This document shows, piece by piece, positions 28,269-51,957 of a stretch of 64,000 bases of DNA. The notes beneath the pieces are model-generated. The model had not been told where the DNA came from. It did not search any database and was given only the letters and a program-made list of their open reading frames with translations. The stretch's first letter is position 1. Each line of letters starts with the position of its first letter. The stretch lies in contig DMXO01000005.1 of the NCBI GenBank assembly GCA_003482855.1, positions 227,719 through 291,718 of the forward strand, given 5' to 3'. This DNA is from Candidatus Magasanikiibacteriota bacterium. GTDB taxonomy: Bacteria; Patescibacteriota; Patescibacteriia; Magasanikbacterales; UBA922. Both the position numbers and the translations under genes were made by a program.

Positions 28269-30095
28269 ATGTCGTATATAAAAAATATTTTATTGGTTGT
28301 ATCTCTTGTATTGGTGTCTGGTTGTACGACTGGTGGAGATATATCTGGCACATCGTTGGCCTCTCTTGAAGGTAGTCGAGAAAATACGCCATATCAATAT
28401 AGCGCGCCATGGGACAAAGTATTGTATGAAGGATTTTATACACGCATGCAAGGACCTAACAACCCCAATAGTACAGGTGAAATAAAAGGTGGCGTCGTTC
28501 CTCATCATCTTTTAGCAGGCCATATGGCGGCTGCTTTTTTTGATAATTTAGCTCCACAAAATCCATCTACCATTATCATAATTGGTCCGAATCACTTTGG
28601 GCGCGGAGTTGCTGATGTTATTTCTACTCTTCGTGATTGGAAAACACCTTTTGGAGATGTAGAGACAGACACATCGCTTGTTGAAAAACTTGTTAGCAAT
28701 AATATAGTAGTTGTTGATGAGGAAACTATAAAGGAAGAACATTCTTTATATTCCACAATTCCTTTCATAAGACATTCTCTTCCGAATGCAAAAGTTGTTC
28801 CACTTGCATTGCGAAATGATATAGCTACAGAAAAAATGGATGAACTCATAGCTATATTGGCACAGGAGATGCCAAAAGATGCGGTGATTATTTCTTCGAT
28901 TGATTTTTCTCATTACCAGACGCTTCCTGTTGCCAATTTCCATGATGAACTAAGCATGGGGGTTATAAAATCTTTTGATTATGATCGTTTGGAAGATCTT
29001 GAAATTGACTCAGTTCCTAGTCTTTATGTACTTATGAAACTTATGGAGCATTTCAAAGCTCAACATATTTCATATGAAGAACATTCCAACTCAGCTATAG
29101 TTGCTGATACCCCAGATGAGAAATTGACAACAAGCTATTATATACCATATTTTACGTACGGTGATCCAACTAATAAGCGTGTAGCAAGTATTTTGCATTT
29201 TGGTGACATGATGCTTGATCGTAATGTAAAGAAACGCATAGATATGTATGGTACTGATCATGTACTAGGACAATTGGCTGGCGAGGAACTTAGATTTTTC
29301 AAAGGTATGGATGTGATTGGTGCAAATTTAGAAGGTCCTTTTGCAGATTCACGTCGTGACACGACAAAAGAAATAGCATTTCGATTTGATCCGGCTCTTA
29401 TTCCTATGTTGCAGAAATATAATCTTTCATTATTTACTATTGCCAATAACCATACACTTGATATGGGTTGGCAAGGGTTTGAAGAATCAAAGAAAAATTT
29501 ATCCGATGCAGGAATTGAGTATTATGGGCATGAATTGAGAGTGACACAAGAAGACTCAGTATTGTATAAAGAGATTGGTGGACTTAAGTTTGGTTTTATT
29601 GGCGTGGATGATACTATTTTGAAACTTGATGTAAGTATTATAAAGCAATTGATTGAAGAATCTGAAAAAAATAATGATTATACTATTGTCAATATACATT
29701 GGGGAGCTGAATATGGAGTGCTTAATTCAAATGCAAGGCAACAATATCTTGCACATGAGATGATCGATGCTGGCGCAGATGTTATTATTGGCAATCATCC
29801 ACACGTCGTGCAAGAGATAGAGATGTATCACGATAGACCGATATTTTATTCTCTTGGTAATTTTATATTTGATCAATATTTTTCTATCCCTACACAGCAG
29901 ACAATAGGTGTTGGACTTGTATTCCAAGATACAGATAGCCTCAATATACATATATTTCCTATAGAAGCAGAAGATAGTCGCAATCAGCTTATGGACCACG
30001 AAGCGTCTCGGGCTTTTCTCAAACAACTGGTTGCATCAAGTCGTCTAGGCGACTATACTATGGATAATAATACATTACATATATCTTTTAATTAA
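28269..30095 (+). CDS. lipoprotein: MEMO-like (extradiol-dioxygenase-class-III-like) N-domain fused to CapA/PgsA-type metallophosphatase domain
   Basis: 608 aa. Lipobox LVSGC. N-domain VPHHLLAGHM..IIGPNHFG..SIDFSHY. C-domain GANLEGPF..ANNHTLD..NIHWGAEY..GNHPHVVQ..SLGNFIFD (CapA signature). Confidence 0.6.
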   Translation: MSYIKNILLVVSLVLVSGCTTGGDISGTSLASLEGSRENTPYQYSAPWDKVLYEGFYTRMQGPNNPNSTGEIKGGVVPHHLLAGHMAAAFFDNLAPQNPSTIIIIGPNHFGRGVADVISTLRDWKTPFGDVETDTSLVEKLVSNNIVVVDEETIKEEHSLYSTIPFIRHSLPNAKVVPLALRNDIATEKMDELIAILAQEMPKDAVIISSIDFSHYQTLPVANFHDELSMGVIKSFDYDRLEDLEIDSVPSLYVLMKLMEHFKAQHISYEEHSNSAIVADTPDEKLTTSYYIPYFTYGDPTNKRVASILHFGDMMLDRNVKKRIDMYGTDHVLGQLAGEELRFFKGMDVIGANLEGPFADSRRDTTKEIAFRFDPALIPMLQKYNLSLFTIANNHTLDMGWQGFEESKKNLSDAGIEYYGHELRVTQEDSVLYKEIGGLKFGFIGVDDTILKLDVSIIKQLIEESEKNNDYTIVNIHWGAEYGVLNSNARQQYLAHEMIDAGADVIIGNHPHVVQEIEMYHDRPIFYSLGNFIFDQYFSIPTQQTIGVGLVFQDTDSLNIHIFPIEAEDSRNQLMDHEASRAFLKQLVASSRLGDYTMDNNTLHISFN

Positions 30096-43401: not shown

Positions 43402-43866
43402 ATGGGGCCAGAAATTATTAGTTATATCGCTCTAGGATTTATTATTGTCATAGGTTTTTTTATCGTACGCGCTGCTTTCAAATTACATGAAAAAAATTAT
43501 CCATTGGAAGATGGAGAAAAAAAATTGTACGAAGAGTCGGATGTAAGATTCGAAACACATCTCAACGGAGAAACAACTATACGTAAAGTTCGCGTACGTA
43601 TCACTGATAGGCGTCTATTTATCTTTTCTCATGGCGAATATTTATACGCTGTGATATATGTTGATGGTCGAGCTGCAGACAAGACAAGAGATCATCTAAA
43701 AGGGGTGGAACATATTCCACGCACTTCCTTCAAAGTGGAGCATCATGAGAAGCGTAATGTCGATGTTTTGGTCGTCGAACATGCAAATATTATTGGTTTA
43801 CCTATGCGCTATACTTTTTTTATGGCAGGGGTTCAAGATGCTGCTAAAGCTCTGGGTATAGTGTAA
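43402..43866 (+). CDS. hypothetical membrane-anchored protein
   Basis: 154 aa, N-terminal TM. Confidence 0.4.
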   Translation: MGPEIISYIALGFIIVIGFFIVRAAFKLHEKNYPLEDGEKKLYEESDVRFETHLNGETTIRKVRVRITDRRLFIFSHGEYLYAVIYVDGRAADKTRDHLKGVEHIPRTSFKVEHHEKRNVDVLVVEHANIIGLPMRYTFFMAGVQDAAKALGIV

Positions 43867-45721: not shown

Positions 45722-45865
45722 ATGGAATGTGAAAAATGTGGGGTAGAACTTACTGATGAAAATCACTGTTGTAGCGGTGGCACATGTTGCAAAGAGTGTT
45801 CACCAAATTGTAAAAGTGACGACTGTGGTCCTGAATGCCAGGAGTGTGGTTGTGGAGAAGAATAA
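45722..45865 (+). CDS. small cysteine-rich peptide (47 aa, 13 Cys), unannotated in ORF track
   Basis: MECEKCGVELTDENHCCSGGTCCKECSPNCKSDDCGPECQECGCGEE. Own intrinsic terminator at 45869-45900. Metallothionein-like, zinc-ribbon-like or a modified-peptide precursor. Confidence 0.5.
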   Translation: MECEKCGVELTDENHCCSGGTCCKECSPNCKSDDCGPECQECGCGEE

Positions 45866-45868
45866 TTT

Positions 45869-45900
45869 TATCACCCCATTTTTGGGGTGATTTTATTTTA
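45869..45900 (+). terminator. intrinsic terminator after the Cys-rich peptide gene
   Basis: TCACCCC-attttt-GGGGTGA followed by TTTTATTTT. Confidence 0.7.
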
Positions 45901-46663: not shown

Positions 46664-47614
46664 ATGCGTCTACGATACATGTATGTGTGGGGTATCTCTC
46701 TTTTGGGAGGATTATTAATGCTTGGTGCCGCATGCAGCCCAACAGCACCTGTTGAGGAACAAAATGCCAAACCTGAAACAGGCGGTGGCCAAGCTTGTAG
46801 CTACTATGTAAACGGAGTACAACAAAACTGGCGTTGTGAAAACGATCAGTGGTGTGGAACACAGTCTGGTGATTGTAGAGATGTACCATTTTGTAATGCA
46901 AATACTGATTGTACTACAAATCAAGTTTGTGTAAATGGGTATTGTGGACCTTCACAACAAACTAATCAGCAGGGCTCACCTTGCAGTTCAAATGAGCAGT
47001 GTATTTCAGGTAAATTATGTTCAAATGGTGTCTGCGTTCCTGCAGAACAAGTACTTCCATCTGATCCAAACACTGGCGAATTGCTTTGTAACTCAGATGC
47101 ACAGTGTTGGAATGGAAAAGTGTGTGTGGATAGCCATTGTGTAGTACCCACAACTCCCACAAGTGGGATAGGGTCTTCTTGTACTTCAGATGGTCAGTGT
47201 GGTACAGGAGTTGCTTGTTTTCAAGGGCGTTGTACCTCAGTTCCATCAAGTTGTAATTATCATCCTGAGTGTTTGAGCGATAATTTTGTGTGTTCAAATC
47301 ATACCTGCGTATGGCCTGGTCAAAGTGGACATACATGTAGTAACACAGATGGAGATAGATGGCATTGTCTGAATGCCCAGGCATGTGGAGGAGCATTAAA
47401 TGAATGTTTAACGCCAGGCTCGCCAACTCCCATTACTGAAATAAACTGTGCAAATGATAGCGACTGTGGAACGGGGAATAAATGTAATGGTTTCACTTGT
47501 TATACGCCACTTTACAATCCTTCTTCATGTACAACAGATGCACAGTGTGTAGAAAAGATGTCATTTTGCCAAAATAATGTATGTATCTTTGCCCCGGGAG
47601 GTAATGCGGATTGA
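46664..47614 (+). CDS. cysteine-rich lipoprotein with ~8 tandem 4-Cys modules (C-x4-[QED]C-x4-5-C-x3-C)
   Basis: 316 aa. Signal peptide with lipobox-like LMLGAAC. About 50 Cys. Module repeated, e.g. SPCSSNEQCISGKLCSNGVCVP, LLCNSDAQCWNGKVCVDSHCVVP, SSCTSDGQCGTGVACFQGRCTSV. Confidence 0.6.
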   Translation: MRLRYMYVWGISLLGGLLMLGAACSPTAPVEEQNAKPETGGGQACSYYVNGVQQNWRCENDQWCGTQSGDCRDVPFCNANTDCTTNQVCVNGYCGPSQQTNQQGSPCSSNEQCISGKLCSNGVCVPAEQVLPSDPNTGELLCNSDAQCWNGKVCVDSHCVVPTTPTSGIGSSCTSDGQCGTGVACFQGRCTSVPSSCNYHPECLSDNFVCSNHTCVWPGQSGHTCSNTDGDRWHCLNAQACGGALNECLTPGSPTPITEINCANDSDCGTGNKCNGFTCYTPLYNPSSCTTDAQCVEKMSFCQNNVCIFAPGGNAD

Positions 47615-47651
47615 TACATATAGTATTTACAAATATAATTCGAATAACAAC

Positions 47652-47682
47652 AAAAAAGGGCTGTACTACTGCCCTTTTTTTG
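47652..47682 (+). terminator. intrinsic terminator
   Basis: AGGGC-tgtactact-GCCCT followed by T7. Confidence 0.65.
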
Positions 47683-47881
47683 TTTAACATTGACAAGATA
47701 ATTTATATAATGCATACTATATTTGTATTAATTAATAACAGTATACATATGATCTGTCCTAGAAATTTAGGAGGCGGTGGCTGTGGTTGTTAATCAGTCT
47801 TGTACCGTGCGACAAAACCTCACAAAAAATTATGTGAGGTTTTGTTTGCCTATAGTTTTCAAAATTGATACAATTAAATTA

Positions 47882-48427
47882 ATGGATTCAATTATGCACC
47901 CATATATACCTATAGTACTTGGAACTGCTCGAAAAGGGCGGCAATCTGAGCATGTGGCACAATATATATACAACACACTCAAAAACAATAAAGAGGCTAT
48001 TTTTGAGCTTGTGGATGTGCGTAATTACCTTGTCGAATCTCGAACTATACCTCCGTGGGAAAACAGTAACATAGCCAAACCATGGCGAGACATTGTAGCA
48101 AAATCTTCAGCTTTTATTTTTGTTGTGCCTGAATATAATAGAGGTTATCCAGGAGAATTCAAGATGTTGCTCGATCAGGAGTTTAAAGGATATAACAAGA
48201 AACCTGCACTGATAGTAAGCGTTTCATCCGGTGGCTTCGGTGGTGTACGAATGGCTGAACATTTAATTCCCACATTACGATATATGGGGTTTCATCTTTT
48301 ATCTCAAGATATACAAGTACCAAAGGTAGAAGAGTTTGTGAAAATGAGTATGGAAGAAAAAGATCAAACACTGAAAGAGAAGATAGAGAAAATGGTAGAT
48401 GCCCTTATAGAAAAAAAGAATGACTAA
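47882..48427 (+). CDS. NADPH-dependent FMN reductase family flavoprotein
   Basis: Start reassigned to ATG 47882 (MDSIMHPYIPIVLGTARKGRQSEH). Flavodoxin-like; AFIFVVPEYNRGYPGEFK motif. Confidence 0.7.
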   Translation: MDSIMHPYIPIVLGTARKGRQSEHVAQYIYNTLKNNKEAIFELVDVRNYLVESRTIPPWENSNIAKPWRDIVAKSSAFIFVVPEYNRGYPGEFKMLLDQEFKGYNKKPALIVSVSSGGFGGVRMAEHLIPTLRYMGFHLLSQDIQVPKVEEFVKMSMEEKDQTLKEKIEKMVDALIEKKND

Positions 48428-51400
48428 CTATAATCTCAACGTATCCCAGAAGCAGGCTATCGAATATACCGACGGCCCGCTTTTGATTATTGCTGGGGCT
48501 GGTACAGGCAAGACAACAGTTATTACTCAAAAAATAGCTTATTTAATAGAACAAAAGTTTGCCACGCCTGAGCAAATTTTGGCATTAACGTTTACTGACA
48601 AGGCGGCTGGAGAAATGCAAGGACGTGTAGATGAAATGATGGATATAGGTTATGTAGATTTACAGATTTCTACATTTCATGCATTTTGTCAAAGGCTCCT
48701 TGAGGAATACGGTTTGGAAATTGGATTACCAAATAAATTCAAATTACTAACGCTGACAGATGCATGGCTTCTTATGCGAGAGCATGTTTACGATTTTAAT
48801 TTGGATTATTATAGACCACTCGGCAATCCAAATAAACACATCCATACTCTCCTTGACCATTTTTCAAAATGTAAAGACGAGCTTGTTTCTCCAAAAAGTT
48901 ATATAGAATACGCAGAAGGTTTGGCAATGGATAGTGATAGCGCGCAAATTTTGGAAAAAAATAAAACAGTCGAACTCGCGCATGCGTATCATCAGTATAA
49001 CCAGCTATTACTCGATAAAGAATCTCTTGATTTTGGGGATATTATCTTTTACTGTGTGAAACTCTTACAAGAACGCCCAAATATATTGAAACTCTTACAA
49101 GAACGTTTTAAATATATTCTCATAGATGAATTTCAGGATGTCAATTGGGCACAATATCAACTTATAAGATTATTAGCCAATAAAAATTCACAATTGACAG
49201 TGGTGGGGGATGATGATCAGAGTATTTATGCATTTCGTGGAAGTAATGTGTCTATTATCATGCGATTTAAGGAAGATTATCCAGATGCAAAAGAGATTGT
49301 ATTGACGGAAAATTATCGTTCAAAGCAAGAAATTCTTGATTTTGCATATGCATCCATTCAAAATAATAATCCAGACCGTCTAGAGCAAAAATTGGGTGTA
49401 AATAAGAAACTTCTGAGTGGAGTTCAAGTAGAAAAAATAAAGAGTCAAAAAAATGTCGAGCATCTACATTTTCAGACACTTGATGATGAAGTGGTTGGTG
49501 TAATCAAAAAAATTAGTGAAATCAAAGAACAATCCAGGTTAGTATCTTGGGATGACTTTGCAATCTTAGTTCGGGCAAATAGCCATGTAGAGCCATTTGC
49601 CAATGCGCTCGAATCTCATAATATCCCATATGAATATCTTGCTTCGTCAGGGCTATATCGCCAGCCGATTGTGCTTGATGCTATCGGCTTTCTTAATAGT
49701 ATTGAACATATTCATGACGATAGAGCCATATACCGGCTCTTACGCATGCCATTCTTACAAATGAAAGAGGATGACTTACAAAAATTGACTGCCATGGCGA
49801 AGAAAAAAAGTATAGCATATTATGAGGCACTGAAGCGGTCAAGAGAATTTTATCTTTCGATGGAAGGTACAAATGTGTGTGAAAAACTTATCAGTCTCTT
49901 TCATGAGGGGATGAGACATTCACGATTCGAAAAACCAACAAGCGTACTGTATCAATTTTTGGAAAATAGTGGGTATCTTTCATATCTCACTCATGAAGAA
50001 GGACGGGGAAATAAAGAAATTATTAGACAAATCCATCATCTTAAACAGCTTTTTGATCTTATACGAAATTATGAAGAAGTAATGCCTGGTGCCCATGTAG
50101 CAGGATTTGTAGAGCACTATAACTATATTATAGAATCCGGCGACGGTGGTAAGATGTACCAGCCGACAGATACTCCTAATTCAGTAAATATCTTGACAGT
50201 TCATGCGGCAAAGGGTCTGGAATTTAAATATGTGTTTGTTGTTAATTTGGTAGAAGAAAGATTTCCAAGTAGAAATAGAGGTGGCGATATAGAATTACCT
50301 GATGAATTAGTAAAAGAATTATCAAATGGGGGTCACAATTTCCATTATCAAGAAGAACGCAGACTATTTTATGTGGCAATTACACGTGCAAAAGAAAAAT
50401 TATTTTTGACAAGTGCCGATGATTATGGCGGCTCACGAAAAAAGAAGATCTCACGATTTTTAGACGAGGTTGGATTTGAAACTAACAAACAACGAACAAC
50501 GAACAACGAACAACGGAGCGGACTTCTTAACAAAAAAATATCCTACATTTCTGCCTTGCCGGCAGGCAGACAATATCCAATATCTTCCAAGACAAGGAAT
50601 CAAAGTAACGAATTACCAAAAATTATTCAAGATACCTTCTCCTACTCTCAGATCAATTCGTATGAACGTTGTCCCTATCAGTATAAATTAGCGCATGTAC
50701 TTAAAATTCCAATGAAAGGTAGTGCAAGCTTTAGTTTTGGCAACACGATACACAATACATTGCAAACATTTTATGAACGTATCCAAGAGCTTAATAGAGC
50801 AAAACAGAGCAGTCTGTTTGGTTTGCCTGTAGAAGCACCGCGTATTAAAGGTGATGGAATACAGGTACCAACATTGGAAGAGTTGCTCGATGATTACGAG
50901 AAGGCGTGGATTCCCGATTGGTACAAAAGCAAACAACAGCGAGAGAGTTATTACCAAAAAGGTAAAGAAATTTTGAAAGTATTTTATGCCTCAGAGCAAA
51001 ACTCCTGGTCAATACCAGTAAGCCTTGAAGGTTGGTTCAAAATAAAAGTAGGGGAGTACCTTGTCAATGGACGTATTGATCGTATAGACAAACAATTAGA
51101 CGGCAGTTTAGAAATTATTGACTACAAAACAGGGTCAGCGAAGGAAACTCTCACAAGTGAAGATAAACAGCAACTTATCATATATCAGATTGCTGCCCAA
51201 TCATTATCAGAGTATAACCACATAGGACCTGTAGGTAAACTTACATTTTATTATGTCAATGACAACATAAAAACTTCATTTTTGGGAGAAAACAAGGATA
51301 TAGAAAAATTAAAAGGAAAATTAATTAATGTTATTACTCAAATTCAAGGGGGCGACTTCGCTGCTACGCCAGGTAAACATGTGTGCGCGTACTGTGATTT

Positions 51401-51431
51401 CAAAGAAATTTGTGAATTTAGGCAATTATAA
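48420..51431 (+). CDS. UvrD/PcrA-family helicase fused to a C-terminal PD-(D/E)xK nuclease with Cys cluster (AddA/RecB-like)
   Basis: 1003 aa. Helicase motif I AGAGTGKTTV. C-terminal DGSLEIIDYKTG and CAYCDFKEIC. Contains an (AACGAAC)x3-5 heptamer array at 50484-50518. Confidence 0.8.
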   Translation: MTNYNLNVSQKQAIEYTDGPLLIIAGAGTGKTTVITQKIAYLIEQKFATPEQILALTFTDKAAGEMQGRVDEMMDIGYVDLQISTFHAFCQRLLEEYGLEIGLPNKFKLLTLTDAWLLMREHVYDFNLDYYRPLGNPNKHIHTLLDHFSKCKDELVSPKSYIEYAEGLAMDSDSAQILEKNKTVELAHAYHQYNQLLLDKESLDFGDIIFYCVKLLQERPNILKLLQERFKYILIDEFQDVNWAQYQLIRLLANKNSQLTVVGDDDQSIYAFRGSNVSIIMRFKEDYPDAKEIVLTENYRSKQEILDFAYASIQNNNPDRLEQKLGVNKKLLSGVQVEKIKSQKNVEHLHFQTLDDEVVGVIKKISEIKEQSRLVSWDDFAILVRANSHVEPFANALESHNIPYEYLASSGLYRQPIVLDAIGFLNSIEHIHDDRAIYRLLRMPFLQMKEDDLQKLTAMAKKKSIAYYEALKRSREFYLSMEGTNVCEKLISLFHEGMRHSRFEKPTSVLYQFLENSGYLSYLTHEEGRGNKEIIRQIHHLKQLFDLIRNYEEVMPGAHVAGFVEHYNYIIESGDGGKMYQPTDTPNSVNILTVHAAKGLEFKYVFVVNLVEERFPSRNRGGDIELPDELVKELSNGGHNFHYQEERRLFYVAITRAKEKLFLTSADDYGGSRKKKISRFLDEVGFETNKQRTTNNEQRSGLLNKKISYISALPAGRQYPISSKTRNQSNELPKIIQDTFSYSQINSYERCPYQYKLAHVLKIPMKGSASFSFGNTIHNTLQTFYERIQELNRAKQSSLFGLPVEAPRIKGDGIQVPTLEELLDDYEKAWIPDWYKSKQQRESYYQKGKEILKVFYASEQNSWSIPVSLEGWFKIKVGEYLVNGRIDRIDKQLDGSLEIIDYKTGSAKETLTSEDKQQLIIYQIAAQSLSEYNHIGPVGKLTFYYVNDNIKTSFLGENKDIEKLKGKLINVITQIQGGDFAATPGKHVCAYCDFKEICEFRQL
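50484..50518. repeat. tandem heptanucleotide repeat (AACGAAC)x3 perfect plus 2 degenerate, inside the helicase gene
   Basis: Units aacaaac, aacgaac x3, aacggag. Encodes TNKQRTTNNEQRSG, in frame. Confidence 0.7.
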
Positions 51432-51435
51432 ATAT

Positions 51436-51957
51436 ATGATTATATTATTCTGGGCTGCAACTATTATATTTACTATTGTGTATGCAGGTATTTTATTTTA
51501 TCTTTTGTATGCGCTGTATGCCATGATTAGTGGGGCGCCATTTGTACCTACGAGCCATGAAAAGGTGAAAAAAATGATTGATATGGTAGACCTCAAAGAA
51601 CATGAACGTTTCATAGATCTTGGTTCTGGAGATGGCAGGCTTGTTTTAGCTGCGACACAACATTGTAAGCATGCGACAGGCGTAGAGATTAGTCCATTAC
51701 TATACTGGACTAGTCGGACACAACAATTGAGAAAGCATATAAAAAATGCAACATTTATACGAGATACACTATGGAATATTGACCTGGCATCGTATGATGT
51801 TGTATCAATTTATTTTATTCCACACTGGATGAAAAAACTTGAAAAAAAAATAAAACAGGAAATGAAGCCCGGGAGTCGTATCATCTCCCATGCCTTTACA
51901 TTTCCTGGGTGGCGTTATCAGAAAAAAGATGATACTATATATATGTACTATGTATAA
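51436..51957 (+). CDS. class I SAM-dependent methyltransferase, membrane anchored
   Basis: Start reassigned to ATG 51436. N-terminal TM, motif I FIDLGSGDGRLVLAA. Confidence 0.6.
   Translation: MIILFWAATIIFTIVYAGILFYLLYALYAMISGAPFVPTSHEKVKKMIDMVDLKEHERFIDLGSGDGRLVLAATQHCKHATGVEISPLLYWTSRTQQLRKHIKNATFIRDTLWNIDLASYDVVSIYFIPHWMKKLEKKIKQEMKPGSRIISHAFTFPGWRYQKKDDTIYMYYV

Follow-up and report, generated by a model that had tools for sequence, protein, structure and literature searches.

The locus described here raises two questions: what kind of protein it encodes, and whether the gene as assembled is the gene that the organism carries. It lies at positions 46,664-47,614 of a 64-kb stretch of DNA (64,000 nucleotides, contig DMXO01000005.1; hereafter the window) from Candidatus Magasanikbacteria, a lineage of the Patescibacteria or Candidate Phyla Radiation (CPR). 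A preliminary description, made from the letters of the DNA, had placed an open reading frame (ORF) of 316 amino acids (aa) on the forward strand between exactly these coordinates and had read its product as a lipid-anchored, cysteine-rich protein, possibly serving in adhesion or host interaction. We find that this ORF, henceforth the target, is a real gene for a predicted membrane-anchored lipoprotein, built of small four-cysteine modules that would form a variable stalk and a conserved head, and that the copy in the window has probably lost part of its modules during assembly.

Module architecture and coding status

The target contains 37 Cys (11.7%), which can be compared with 0-2% in the remaining proteins of the window, save two small proteins at 4.3%. 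Its N-terminus (MRLRYMYVWGISLLGGLLMLGAAC) consists of two Arg, then a hydrophobic core, then a lipobox. The segment LGGLLMLGAAC (aa 14-24), with the two Arg upstream of it, fits the PROSITE-type lipobox pattern. In other words, the charged N-terminus, the hydrophobic region and a lipobox Cys within the first ~35 residues, which together characterize a lipoprotein, are all present. The PROSITE-type pattern and a [LVI]-G-A-[AS]-C box were likewise found in all 15 family members tested (15/15).

Beyond the lipobox Cys24 there are 36 Cys, which make up exactly nine modules of four. Seven of the modules follow the spacing Cx5Cx5-6Cx4C (five exactly Cx5Cx5Cx4C, two with a 6-residue middle gap), and the residue before the second Cys is D, Q or E in 7/7 cases. 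The other two modules contain tryptophan and are spaced differently (Table 1). When the mature sequence was shuffled 20,000 times, the Cx5Cx5-6Cx4C pattern was matched at most 3 times (mean ~0.1) as against the 7 matches observed, i.e. the repeat is far beyond chance. The preliminary description was thus correct in that the lipid-anchored protein consists almost wholly of four-Cys modules. Its count of about eight has to be raised to nine; in its consensus, C-x4-[QED]C-x4-5-C-x3-C, the first gap is right and the next two are each one residue short; and a single repeated module type accounts for seven modules but not for the two tryptophan-containing ones.

CxxC, CxC and CC motifs are absent from the target, the smallest gap between two Cys is 4 residues, and the clustered CxC/CxxC/CC pattern of metallothionein-like proteins is accordingly not seen. 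Judged by its sequence, the Cys chemistry of the target is of the disulfide type, presumably with two disulfides inside each module.

A comparison with a 77%-identical homologue (locus L002) gave a nonsynonymous divergence (dN) of 0.15, a synonymous divergence (dS) of ~1.7 and dN/dS of ~0.09, on account of which we consider the target a real gene under strong purifying selection. A non-coding or chance ORF is ruled out by the same ratio, and the minus-strand ORFs that overlap the target (e.g. 46962-47426) are by-products of the coding frame. All Cys are conserved across proteins that are merely 32-77% identical. An origin in a mobile element or prophage was also considered, and was ruled out by the uniform guanine-plus-cytosine (GC) content and the conserved chromosomal synteny of the region.

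Probable collapse of an internal repeat

Among database proteins P0001 comes closest to the target, with 99% identity and a length of 468 aa. A 540-kb contig (L001, JGI 3300009031), the flanks of which are 100% identical to the window over ~13 kb, carries the gene with 471 extra in-frame bases, giving 473 aa and 14 modules. The extra 471 bp belong to an imperfect tandem duplication, of which they make up one copy; the identity between the two copies is 86.6%. Within it, a stretch of 181 bp is identical in both copies. The window sequence tracks copy 1 before this stretch and copy 2 after it, so the junction lies inside the stretch (Table 1).

An invariant gene upstream was used to look up the locus in other assemblies of the same population, which also occurs in groundwater runs such as SRR2177986 and the ANAN16-1 samples. 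Four assemblies from different samples (L013, L014, L020 and L021) read through from the N-terminus into copy 1 and on into copy 2, and the contigs of five others (L015-L018 and L022), some as long as 62 kb and 177 kb, stop within the first repeat copy. The short junction of the window was seen in none of these nine. The exact 316-aa sequence is recorded once, as the NCBI entry HAT03979.1 (a third-party annotation, TPA, of a metagenome-assembled genome, MAG, of Candidatus Magasanikbacteria), two ENA contigs carry the 473-aa form, and the JGI contig has the 468-aa call. The duplication is also found in P0002, a homologue in a different species.

Since the sister assemblies either encode 473 aa or break in the 181-bp repeat, the nine-module, 316-aa form is probably an in-frame assembly collapse, the true product being a protein of 473 aa and 14 modules. 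It may also be a genuine deletion variant that arose by recombination between the repeats. The gene length in the preliminary description therefore matches the window, but it probably falls short of the gene itself. We note that the 181-bp perfect repeat is a recurrent contig breakpoint in independent metagenome assemblies of this population (L015-L018, L022).

Distribution and variability of the family

The family is small. Nine matches were obtained in a word-indexed search through 5.8 billion proteins, and a family-profile search added one close member (P0088). An exhaustive HMMER scan, covering 1.84 billion representatives, yielded 8 proteins at E < 1e-30, 14 at E < 1e-10 and 79 at E <= 1e-3, the weaker matches being generic Cys-repeat proteins, e.g. 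one from Myxococcota. For these weaker relatives, cluster entries gave no taxonomic assignment. We estimate the size of the family at ~12-16 clusters. Its conserved segment is encoded in 4 of 185,579 GTDB species-representative genomes, and all named members come from MAGs of Parcubacteria, Patescibacteria or Magasanikbacteria. One short-form member is encoded in an assembly labelled 'uncultured Gammaproteobacteria bacterium' (GCA_964511375.1, CAZEEW010000002.1; L010/L005). Its gene context is that of a Patescibacteria MAG on L008/L011, and the label is probably wrong.

Variation of module number among relatives, which the preliminary description had proposed to check, is considerable: the proteins range from 256 to 509 aa and contain 5-15 modules. 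The Cys count equals 1 + 4n in complete members, the exceptions being P0004, and P0006 with one extra Cys in the signal peptide. Family members differ both in how many modules precede the head and in the type of these modules. The head itself, i.e. two modules of the spacing found in the DPY module of Drosophila Dumpy (see below) followed by one tryptophan-containing module, was found by a regular expression in 13 of 17 members. Of its alignment columns 22 are invariant, among them the non-Cys residues G, Q, G, P, H, L, W, P, R and W. In a clade of short forms (260-295 aa) the anchor is followed by a low-complexity linker of ~60 residues, then by 3-4 stalk modules, and the head is at the C-terminus; the stalk linkers of these proteins read PAE(T/Q)VLPxDPxTGxLL. 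The repeated, near-identical multi-module units of P0011 point to recent tandem amplification, and tandem module amplification is also present in P0001. The number of stalk modules is thus evolutionarily plastic, changing via tandem duplication and loss, and the head is constant in most members.

Similarity to known modules

The whole target is a member of DUF7107 (PF23416), a domain of unknown function that comprises two consecutive four-Cys modules; it scores 60.2 bits in five matched stretches, the Pfam cut-off being 24.6. Pairs of target modules align to the domain end to end: aa 77-125 correspond to positions 2-47 of 48, and modules 3 and 4 together to positions 1-47 (29.3 bits). Nearly all relatives bear a precomputed DUF7107 match, and the scores of P0008 and P0005 are 62.2 and 40.1, respectively. 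The 82-aa head alone stays under the cut-off with 22.9 bits. Both tryptophan-containing modules lie outside the DUF7107 coverage, and the Pfam search returned no match of any kind for them. A literature search found no publication that mentions DUF7107.

The preliminary description had noted a likeness to small eukaryotic modules, and this is borne out: besides DUF7107, the families Dickkopf_N (PF04706; 35.3 bits, cut-off 25) and EB (PF01683; 27.2 bits, cut-off 24.3) reach their whole-protein cut-offs, and the DPY spacing is the same. In the case of Dickkopf_N and EB, however, the scores pass but just part of each profile is covered. The Dickkopf_N score is a sum over five partial stretches, the best of which cover just profile positions 27-51, 31-51 or 32-51 of 51, and the sole full-length alignment (1-51) remains under the cut-off at 17.6 bits (E = 0.0048). 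The EB match extends over ~40 of 52 profile positions and is repeated along the protein. Dickkopf_N has 10 Cys and EB has 8, as against 4 in the unit of the target. The homologue at L002/L009 (P0106, MFA6426818.1) is named 'dickkopf-related protein' by NCBI. Given that the score sums partial matches, we regard this name as an over-annotation; it is misleading and should not be propagated.

The best sequence match in the PDB is the 24-residue DPY module of Dumpy (1OIG, E = 0.17); the identity between it and module 2 in Table 1 was counted by hand. The consensus of DPY modules is Cx5Cx5Cx4C with two disulfides (PMC12723725). The Cys spacing of the target is the same, and in both cases the modules would be strung together in an extended extracellular protein. 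The Pfam model of DPY (PF21164) stays below its cut-off of 27, the whole protein scoring 17.4 bits and a fragment 20.9 bits. Dumpy is a giant matrix fibre of animals in which DPY and EGF modules alternate (PMC12723725), whereas the target is a bacterial lipoprotein of 316-473 aa without EGF modules. CREMP of the avian eggshell membrane has tandem modules of ~20 residues, with C1-C3/C2-C4 disulfides around a beta-hairpin, in extended arrays with sparse contacts between modules (PMC12723725). It shares with the target the long tandem arrays; it is a eukaryotic fibre-former, and its spacing (Cx4Cx5Cx8C) is different.

Among bacterial proteins the comparison of interest is TraA of Myxococcus xanthus, for whose Cys-rich repeats the function of a rigid stalk that displays a receptor or recognition domain has been proposed (PMC3325183). 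Like TraA, the target would be a surface protein with tandem Cys-rich repeats that are presumed to be disulfide-bonded, and it shows a weak similarity to the TraA repeat region: the Myxococcus Cys-rich repeat TIGR04201 scores 14.5 bits (cut-off 25) and the TraA model 6.6 bits (cut-off 750; both NCBIfam). Unlike TraA, it has no PA14 domain (no match in the Pfam scan) and no MYXO-CTERM, and it carries an N-terminal lipid instead of a C-terminal sorting tag. CPR cells are moreover thought to lack an outer membrane, which sets them apart from Myxococcus.

A PDB search with the alignment profile gave just Dkk4 and VLDL-receptor matches, with E values of 1-8. No bacterial domain of known function was matched by the target in the Pfam and NCBIfam searches; a clear match to a common domain of this kind, which the preliminary description had named as evidence against itself, was thus not seen. 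The bacterial modules may be homologous to the DPY, EB and Dkk modules or may have converged with them. The module class is already catalogued, as DUF7107, and the target protein is already deposited as 'hypothetical'. The specific family, i.e. a CPR lipoprotein with the tryptophan-containing module and the 12-Cys head, is undescribed and narrow in distribution, and no new principle is shown by it.

Predicted structure

The head (82 aa) was modelled by AlphaFold2 with a predicted local distance difference test (pLDDT) score of 82.8 and a predicted template modelling (pTM) score of 0.56, and the model has a short pair of beta-strands per module. When models were compared with the PDB by Foldseek, the full-length model gave no significant match. 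The top PDB match was Dkk4 (5O57; E = 0.14-0.47, template modelling (TM) score ~0.3), and further, not significant matches of the head model were the furin-like Cys-rich region of HER2 and gigastasin. Against BFVD, the best matches of the head model were Cys-rich transmembrane proteins of giant viruses, at E = 7e-3 or worse.

Genomic neighbourhood

The region is ordinary chromosome with a uniform GC content. It begins with ATP synthase genes, recognized from the synteny with L003 and L007; transporters, a putative carbonic anhydrase and an ABC exporter follow, after which come a 47-aa peptide, an acidic lipoprotein, the target, a flavin mononucleotide (FMN) reductase and a UvrD/PD-(D/E)XK helicase. 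The features of the locus are collected in Table 1.

Table 1. Features of the target gene and of the adjacent cluster (positions in the window; module limits also in residues of the target).
Feature	Position	Strand	Remarks
ABC exporter (ABC_membrane + ABC_tran), 585 aa	43922..45679	+	Directly upstream of the cluster; Pfam; adjacent in 3/4 lineages
Acidic peptide, 47 aa, 13 Cys	45722..45865	+	Conserved upstream of both lipoprotein genes
Terminator-like hairpin + T-run	45870..45891	+	Between peptide gene and acidic lipoprotein gene; consensus scan; -15.4 kcal/mol, z = -4.15
Acidic lipoprotein, 241 aa	45915..46640	+	Mature isoelectric point (pI) ~4.05; lipobox FMGQSC; 23 bp upstream of target
Target gene	46664..47614	+	Predicted 316-aa lipoprotein, nine 4-Cys modules; NCBI HAT03979.1
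Signal peptide aa 1-23 + lipobox Cys24 (LMLGAA/C)	46664..46735	+	PROSITE-type lipobox pattern
181-bp stretch identical in both copies of the 471-bp duplication	46781..46961	+	Mismatch positions vs L001
Module 1, tryptophan-containing, Cx12Cx5Cx6C	46796..46876	+	aa 45-71; CSYYVNGVQQNWRCENDQWCGTQSGDC; no Pfam family; unit recurs in relatives
Module 2, DPY-like, Cx5Cx5Cx4C	46892..46945	+	aa 77-94; 11/21 identical to 1OIG (Dumpy)
Module 3, DPY-like	46982..47035	+	aa 107-124; linker VPAEQVLPSDPNTGELL after it conserved in relatives
Module 4, DPY-like	47087..47140	+	aa 142-159
Conserved 82-aa head, modules 5+6+7, 12 Cys	47168..47413	+	aa 169-250; regular expression, alignment, AlphaFold2
Module 5, DPY-like	47180..47233	+	aa 173-190; CTSDGQCGTGVACFQGRC
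Module 6, DPY-like, 6-residue middle gap	47252..47308	+	aa 197-215; CNYHPECLSDNFVCSNHTC
Module 7, tryptophan-containing, Cx9Cx5Cx6C	47336..47407	+	aa 225-248; CSNTDGDRWHCLNAQACGGALNEC
Module 8, DPY-like	47447..47500	+	aa 262-279
Module 9, DPY-like, 6-residue middle gap	47528..47584	+	aa 289-307
Terminator-like hairpin (A-run, GC stem, T-run)	47649..47684	+	35 bp past target stop; -14 kcal/mol, z = -3.46

The 23-bp gap between the two lipoprotein genes and the hairpins on either side of them suggest a two-gene transcription unit, from which the peptide gene is excluded; in other words, the target is probably co-transcribed with the acidic lipoprotein. The latter is identical to NCBI DCS29_04380 of Candidatus Magasanikbacteria, and its homologues are found directly upstream of the target homologue in L002, L003, L007 and L012. 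It has an N-terminal module, FEECIKAGYPVMESSPRQC, and a C-terminal aromatic motif (...TYYCVDGIWTHEDYVYPYQNL), with two Cys each. The two-Cys module, FEECIKAGYPVMES(S/Y)PRQCKTPEGK, recurs in a membrane-proximal position in many otherwise unrelated proteins, several of which carry the Gmad2 Ig-like domain (PF10648). The C-terminal Tyr/Trp-rich motif, TYYCxDGIWTxEDYVYPYQ, is duplicated in P0093.

The Cys of the 47-aa peptide are arranged in CC, CxxC and CxC patterns (MxCxKC...ENxCC....CC..C) of the metal-thiolate type, unlike those of the target. Homologues of 42-47 aa with 11-13 Cys are present in L002 (1426-1554), L003 (5157-5300) and L007 (4067-4210, where it is not called as a gene), and also in L004/L012; dN/dS is 0.2-0.45. 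The peptide matched no Pfam, NCBIfam or PDB entry, and no signal peptide or lipobox was found in it. We take it for a putative metallothionein-like or metal-cluster peptide. A Magasanikbacteria protein whose motif is similar, and which may be this peptide, is mentioned in a preprint on insect metallothioneins (10.1101/2020.06.25.172213).

Peptide, acidic lipoprotein and target occur together as a trio in each of four diverged lineages (window/L001, L002/L009, L003/L004/L012 and L007). The Cys-rich secreted cluster of the preliminary description is therefore upheld as a conserved gene group, but not as a secreted one in the case of the peptide, which has no signal peptide, shows the metal-thiolate pattern and is parted from the lipoprotein genes by a terminator-like hairpin. 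In L003 and L007 the ABC exporter is 62-72% identical to that of the window and both lipoproteins just 33-39%, from which it follows that the lipoproteins evolve much faster than the exporter. Fast divergence together with tandem module amplification is behaviour typical of surface proteins, and it suggests that the target is one. A PADLOC scan of the trio was negative.

Peptide, acidic lipoprotein and exporter are all missing from the vicinity of the gene in the short-form clade. In all three loci of this clade the target homologue is divergently arranged beside a gene for an adenylate/guanylate cyclase of 544-546 aa (L005 4234-5874, L006 419-2059 and L008 3232-4866, all on the minus strand), an adjacency that may have a regulatory meaning or may reflect synteny and nothing more.

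Other genes of the window deserve brief mention. The protein encoded at 43402-43866 (+), 154 aa long and with a membrane helix at its N-terminus, matches nothing in Pfam; it is 43% identical in L002, and there its gene, rather than that of the ABC exporter, directly precedes the peptide gene. At 28269-30095 (+) a predicted lipoprotein of 608 aa (LVSGC box) is a fusion of Memo-like and PGA_cap (capsule synthesis) domains, and the ORF after it encodes 666 aa with no Pfam match. Downstream of the target, a UvrD-type helicase of 1003 aa is fused to a PD-(D/E)XK nuclease domain (48420-51431, +). It is followed by a DOT1-like methyltransferase (51328-51957, +), the longest ORF of which overlaps the 3' end of the helicase by ~100 bp. 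The order helicase, methyltransferase, DciA is kept in L001 and L003.

Discussion

We propose that the target is a surface lipoprotein of structural or adhesive function. It would be exported by Sec and lipidated at Cys24, so that the mature, acidic protein would hang from the outer face of the cytoplasmic membrane. Its modules, each locked by two disulfides and joined via short Pro/Thr/Ser/Gln-rich linkers, would form a stalk, and we picture this stalk as semi-rigid because of the TraA repeat proposal (PMC3325183) and the extended arrays of CREMP and DPY modules (PMC12723725). The stalk would carry the conserved head of three modules and 12 Cys; the former would set the reach, and the latter would bind a partner, i.e. 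the co-encoded lipoprotein, a cell-wall component or the surface of a host cell. Of this scheme, the anatomy (stalk and head) is likely to be correct. The reading as a whole we hold to be evenly balanced between right and wrong, and adhesion as the role of the protein is a tentative assignment that leans towards doubt. The adhesion or host interaction of the preliminary description is likewise a conjecture from sequence.

A number of points weigh against the stalk-and-head lipoprotein. Lgt, LspA, Dsb/MdbA and VKOR were not found among the scanned ORFs of the window, and for this reason oxidative folding and lipidation are only assumed for the source genome. In the anoxic groundwater that many CPR bacteria inhabit, thiols outside the cell could remain reduced, and the source organism is an uncultivated one from groundwater. 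Four wider relatives (P0011, P0012, P0014 and P0021) are without the head, and in the window protein and P0005 there are modules also after it, i.e. the head is not always distal. The AlphaFold2 model of the full-length protein (10 sequences) has a pLDDT of 56, too poor to interpret, and the head model found no significant match in the PDB by Foldseek, the best being the N-terminal region of Dkk4 at E = 0.14. In favour of disulfides, on the other hand, CPR genomes are enriched in MdbA-like oxidoreductases, often beside VKOR (PMC6744442).

The target is lipid-anchored and extremely rich in Cys, a second lipoprotein is co-encoded, and modules with two disulfides, arranged in tandem, are typically found in matrix proteins of a structural kind, e.g. 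CREMP and Dumpy (PMC12723725). These features would also suit an envelope matrix, in which intermolecular disulfide cross-links, of the target with itself or with the co-encoded lipoprotein, stiffen the envelope of an ultra-small cell. The strict 4n rule and the fixed intramodule spacing, however, leave no unpaired Cys for such bridges, and a family found in 4 of 185,579 species-representative genomes is too rare for a general CPR solution, so we judge a matrix unlikely. The analogue would be the cysteine-rich outer-membrane complex of chlamydiae (the OmcA lipoprotein and OmcB). If the Cys were instead kept as 36 reduced thiols, the target could be an extracellular metal or thiol-redox protein that acts with the 47-aa peptide and the ABC exporter. 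The metal-thiolate patterns of the peptide, the adjoining exporter and the often anoxic habitats of CPR bacteria are in line with this idea. Yet the target itself, devoid of CxxC, CxC and CC and with its Cys at least 4 residues apart, has the spacing typical of disulfide modules and matches disulfide-module families; a terminator-like hairpin parts the peptide gene from the lipoprotein genes, and the short-form clade has neither peptide nor exporter nearby. We consider such a function highly improbable.

Small disulfide modules also occur in protease inhibitors, and a tandem inhibitor would shield the cell surface from host or environmental proteases by canonical loops of the antistasin, WAP or squash type. 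In its favour, Pfam shows a resemblance to Squash (E = 0.045) and WAP (E = 0.04-0.2), and Foldseek gave local alignments with gigastasin and, at TM 0.75 over 24 residues, with the squash inhibitor MCTI-A. All of these are, however, sub-threshold and follow from the generic shape of a small disulfide module; no conserved reactive-site loop is evident, and the conserved residues cluster in the head rather than in a loop repeated per module, which makes an inhibitor quite improbable. Finally, the whole-protein score for Dickkopf_N, the best PDB match by Foldseek (the Dkk4 N-terminal region) and the NCBI name of P0106 might suggest a genuine Dickkopf-related, eukaryote-derived signalling protein acquired by horizontal transfer. 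But that score is made up of five matches to the last 20-25 of 51 profile positions, the fold matches are weak and there is no second Dkk domain. Moreover, the named hosts are groundwater and environmental Patescibacteria MAGs, and composition and synteny are those of a native chromosome. A true Dickkopf identity is effectively refuted by the partial-profile matches, the weak fold matches and the native chromosomal context, and hardly any credence is left for it.

A bolder version of the stalk-and-head lipoprotein, which we advance as speculation and think rather improbable, is a lineage-specific device for host recognition or attachment in CPR bacteria of the Magasanikbacteria type. Module gain and loss would tune the length of the rod, possibly even within a population, and the head, together with the acidic lipoprotein, would dock onto the surface of a host cell. 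Little is understood, to our knowledge, of host attachment in CPR bacteria outside the type IV pili of Saccharibacteria, and our literature search found no publication that links Patescibacteria with Cys-rich lipoproteins.

The gene is a clean example of a repeat-rich surface gene that was probably truncated by assembly and, in its sister P0106, misnamed by automated annotation. It may serve as a warning that internally repeated surface genes collapse or break in MAG assemblies; in the present case the loss probably amounts to 5 of 14 modules. If the resemblance to animal modules is one of homology, the two-disulfide module of the DPY/EB/Dkk type would have true bacterial homologues, which would bear on the origin of the module. 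The way in which most CPR/Patescibacteria cells face their environment is poorly known. The target, fast-evolving, variable in length, presumably disulfide-stabilised and with a conserved head, is a candidate surface-interaction molecule in a lineage that has no cultured member.

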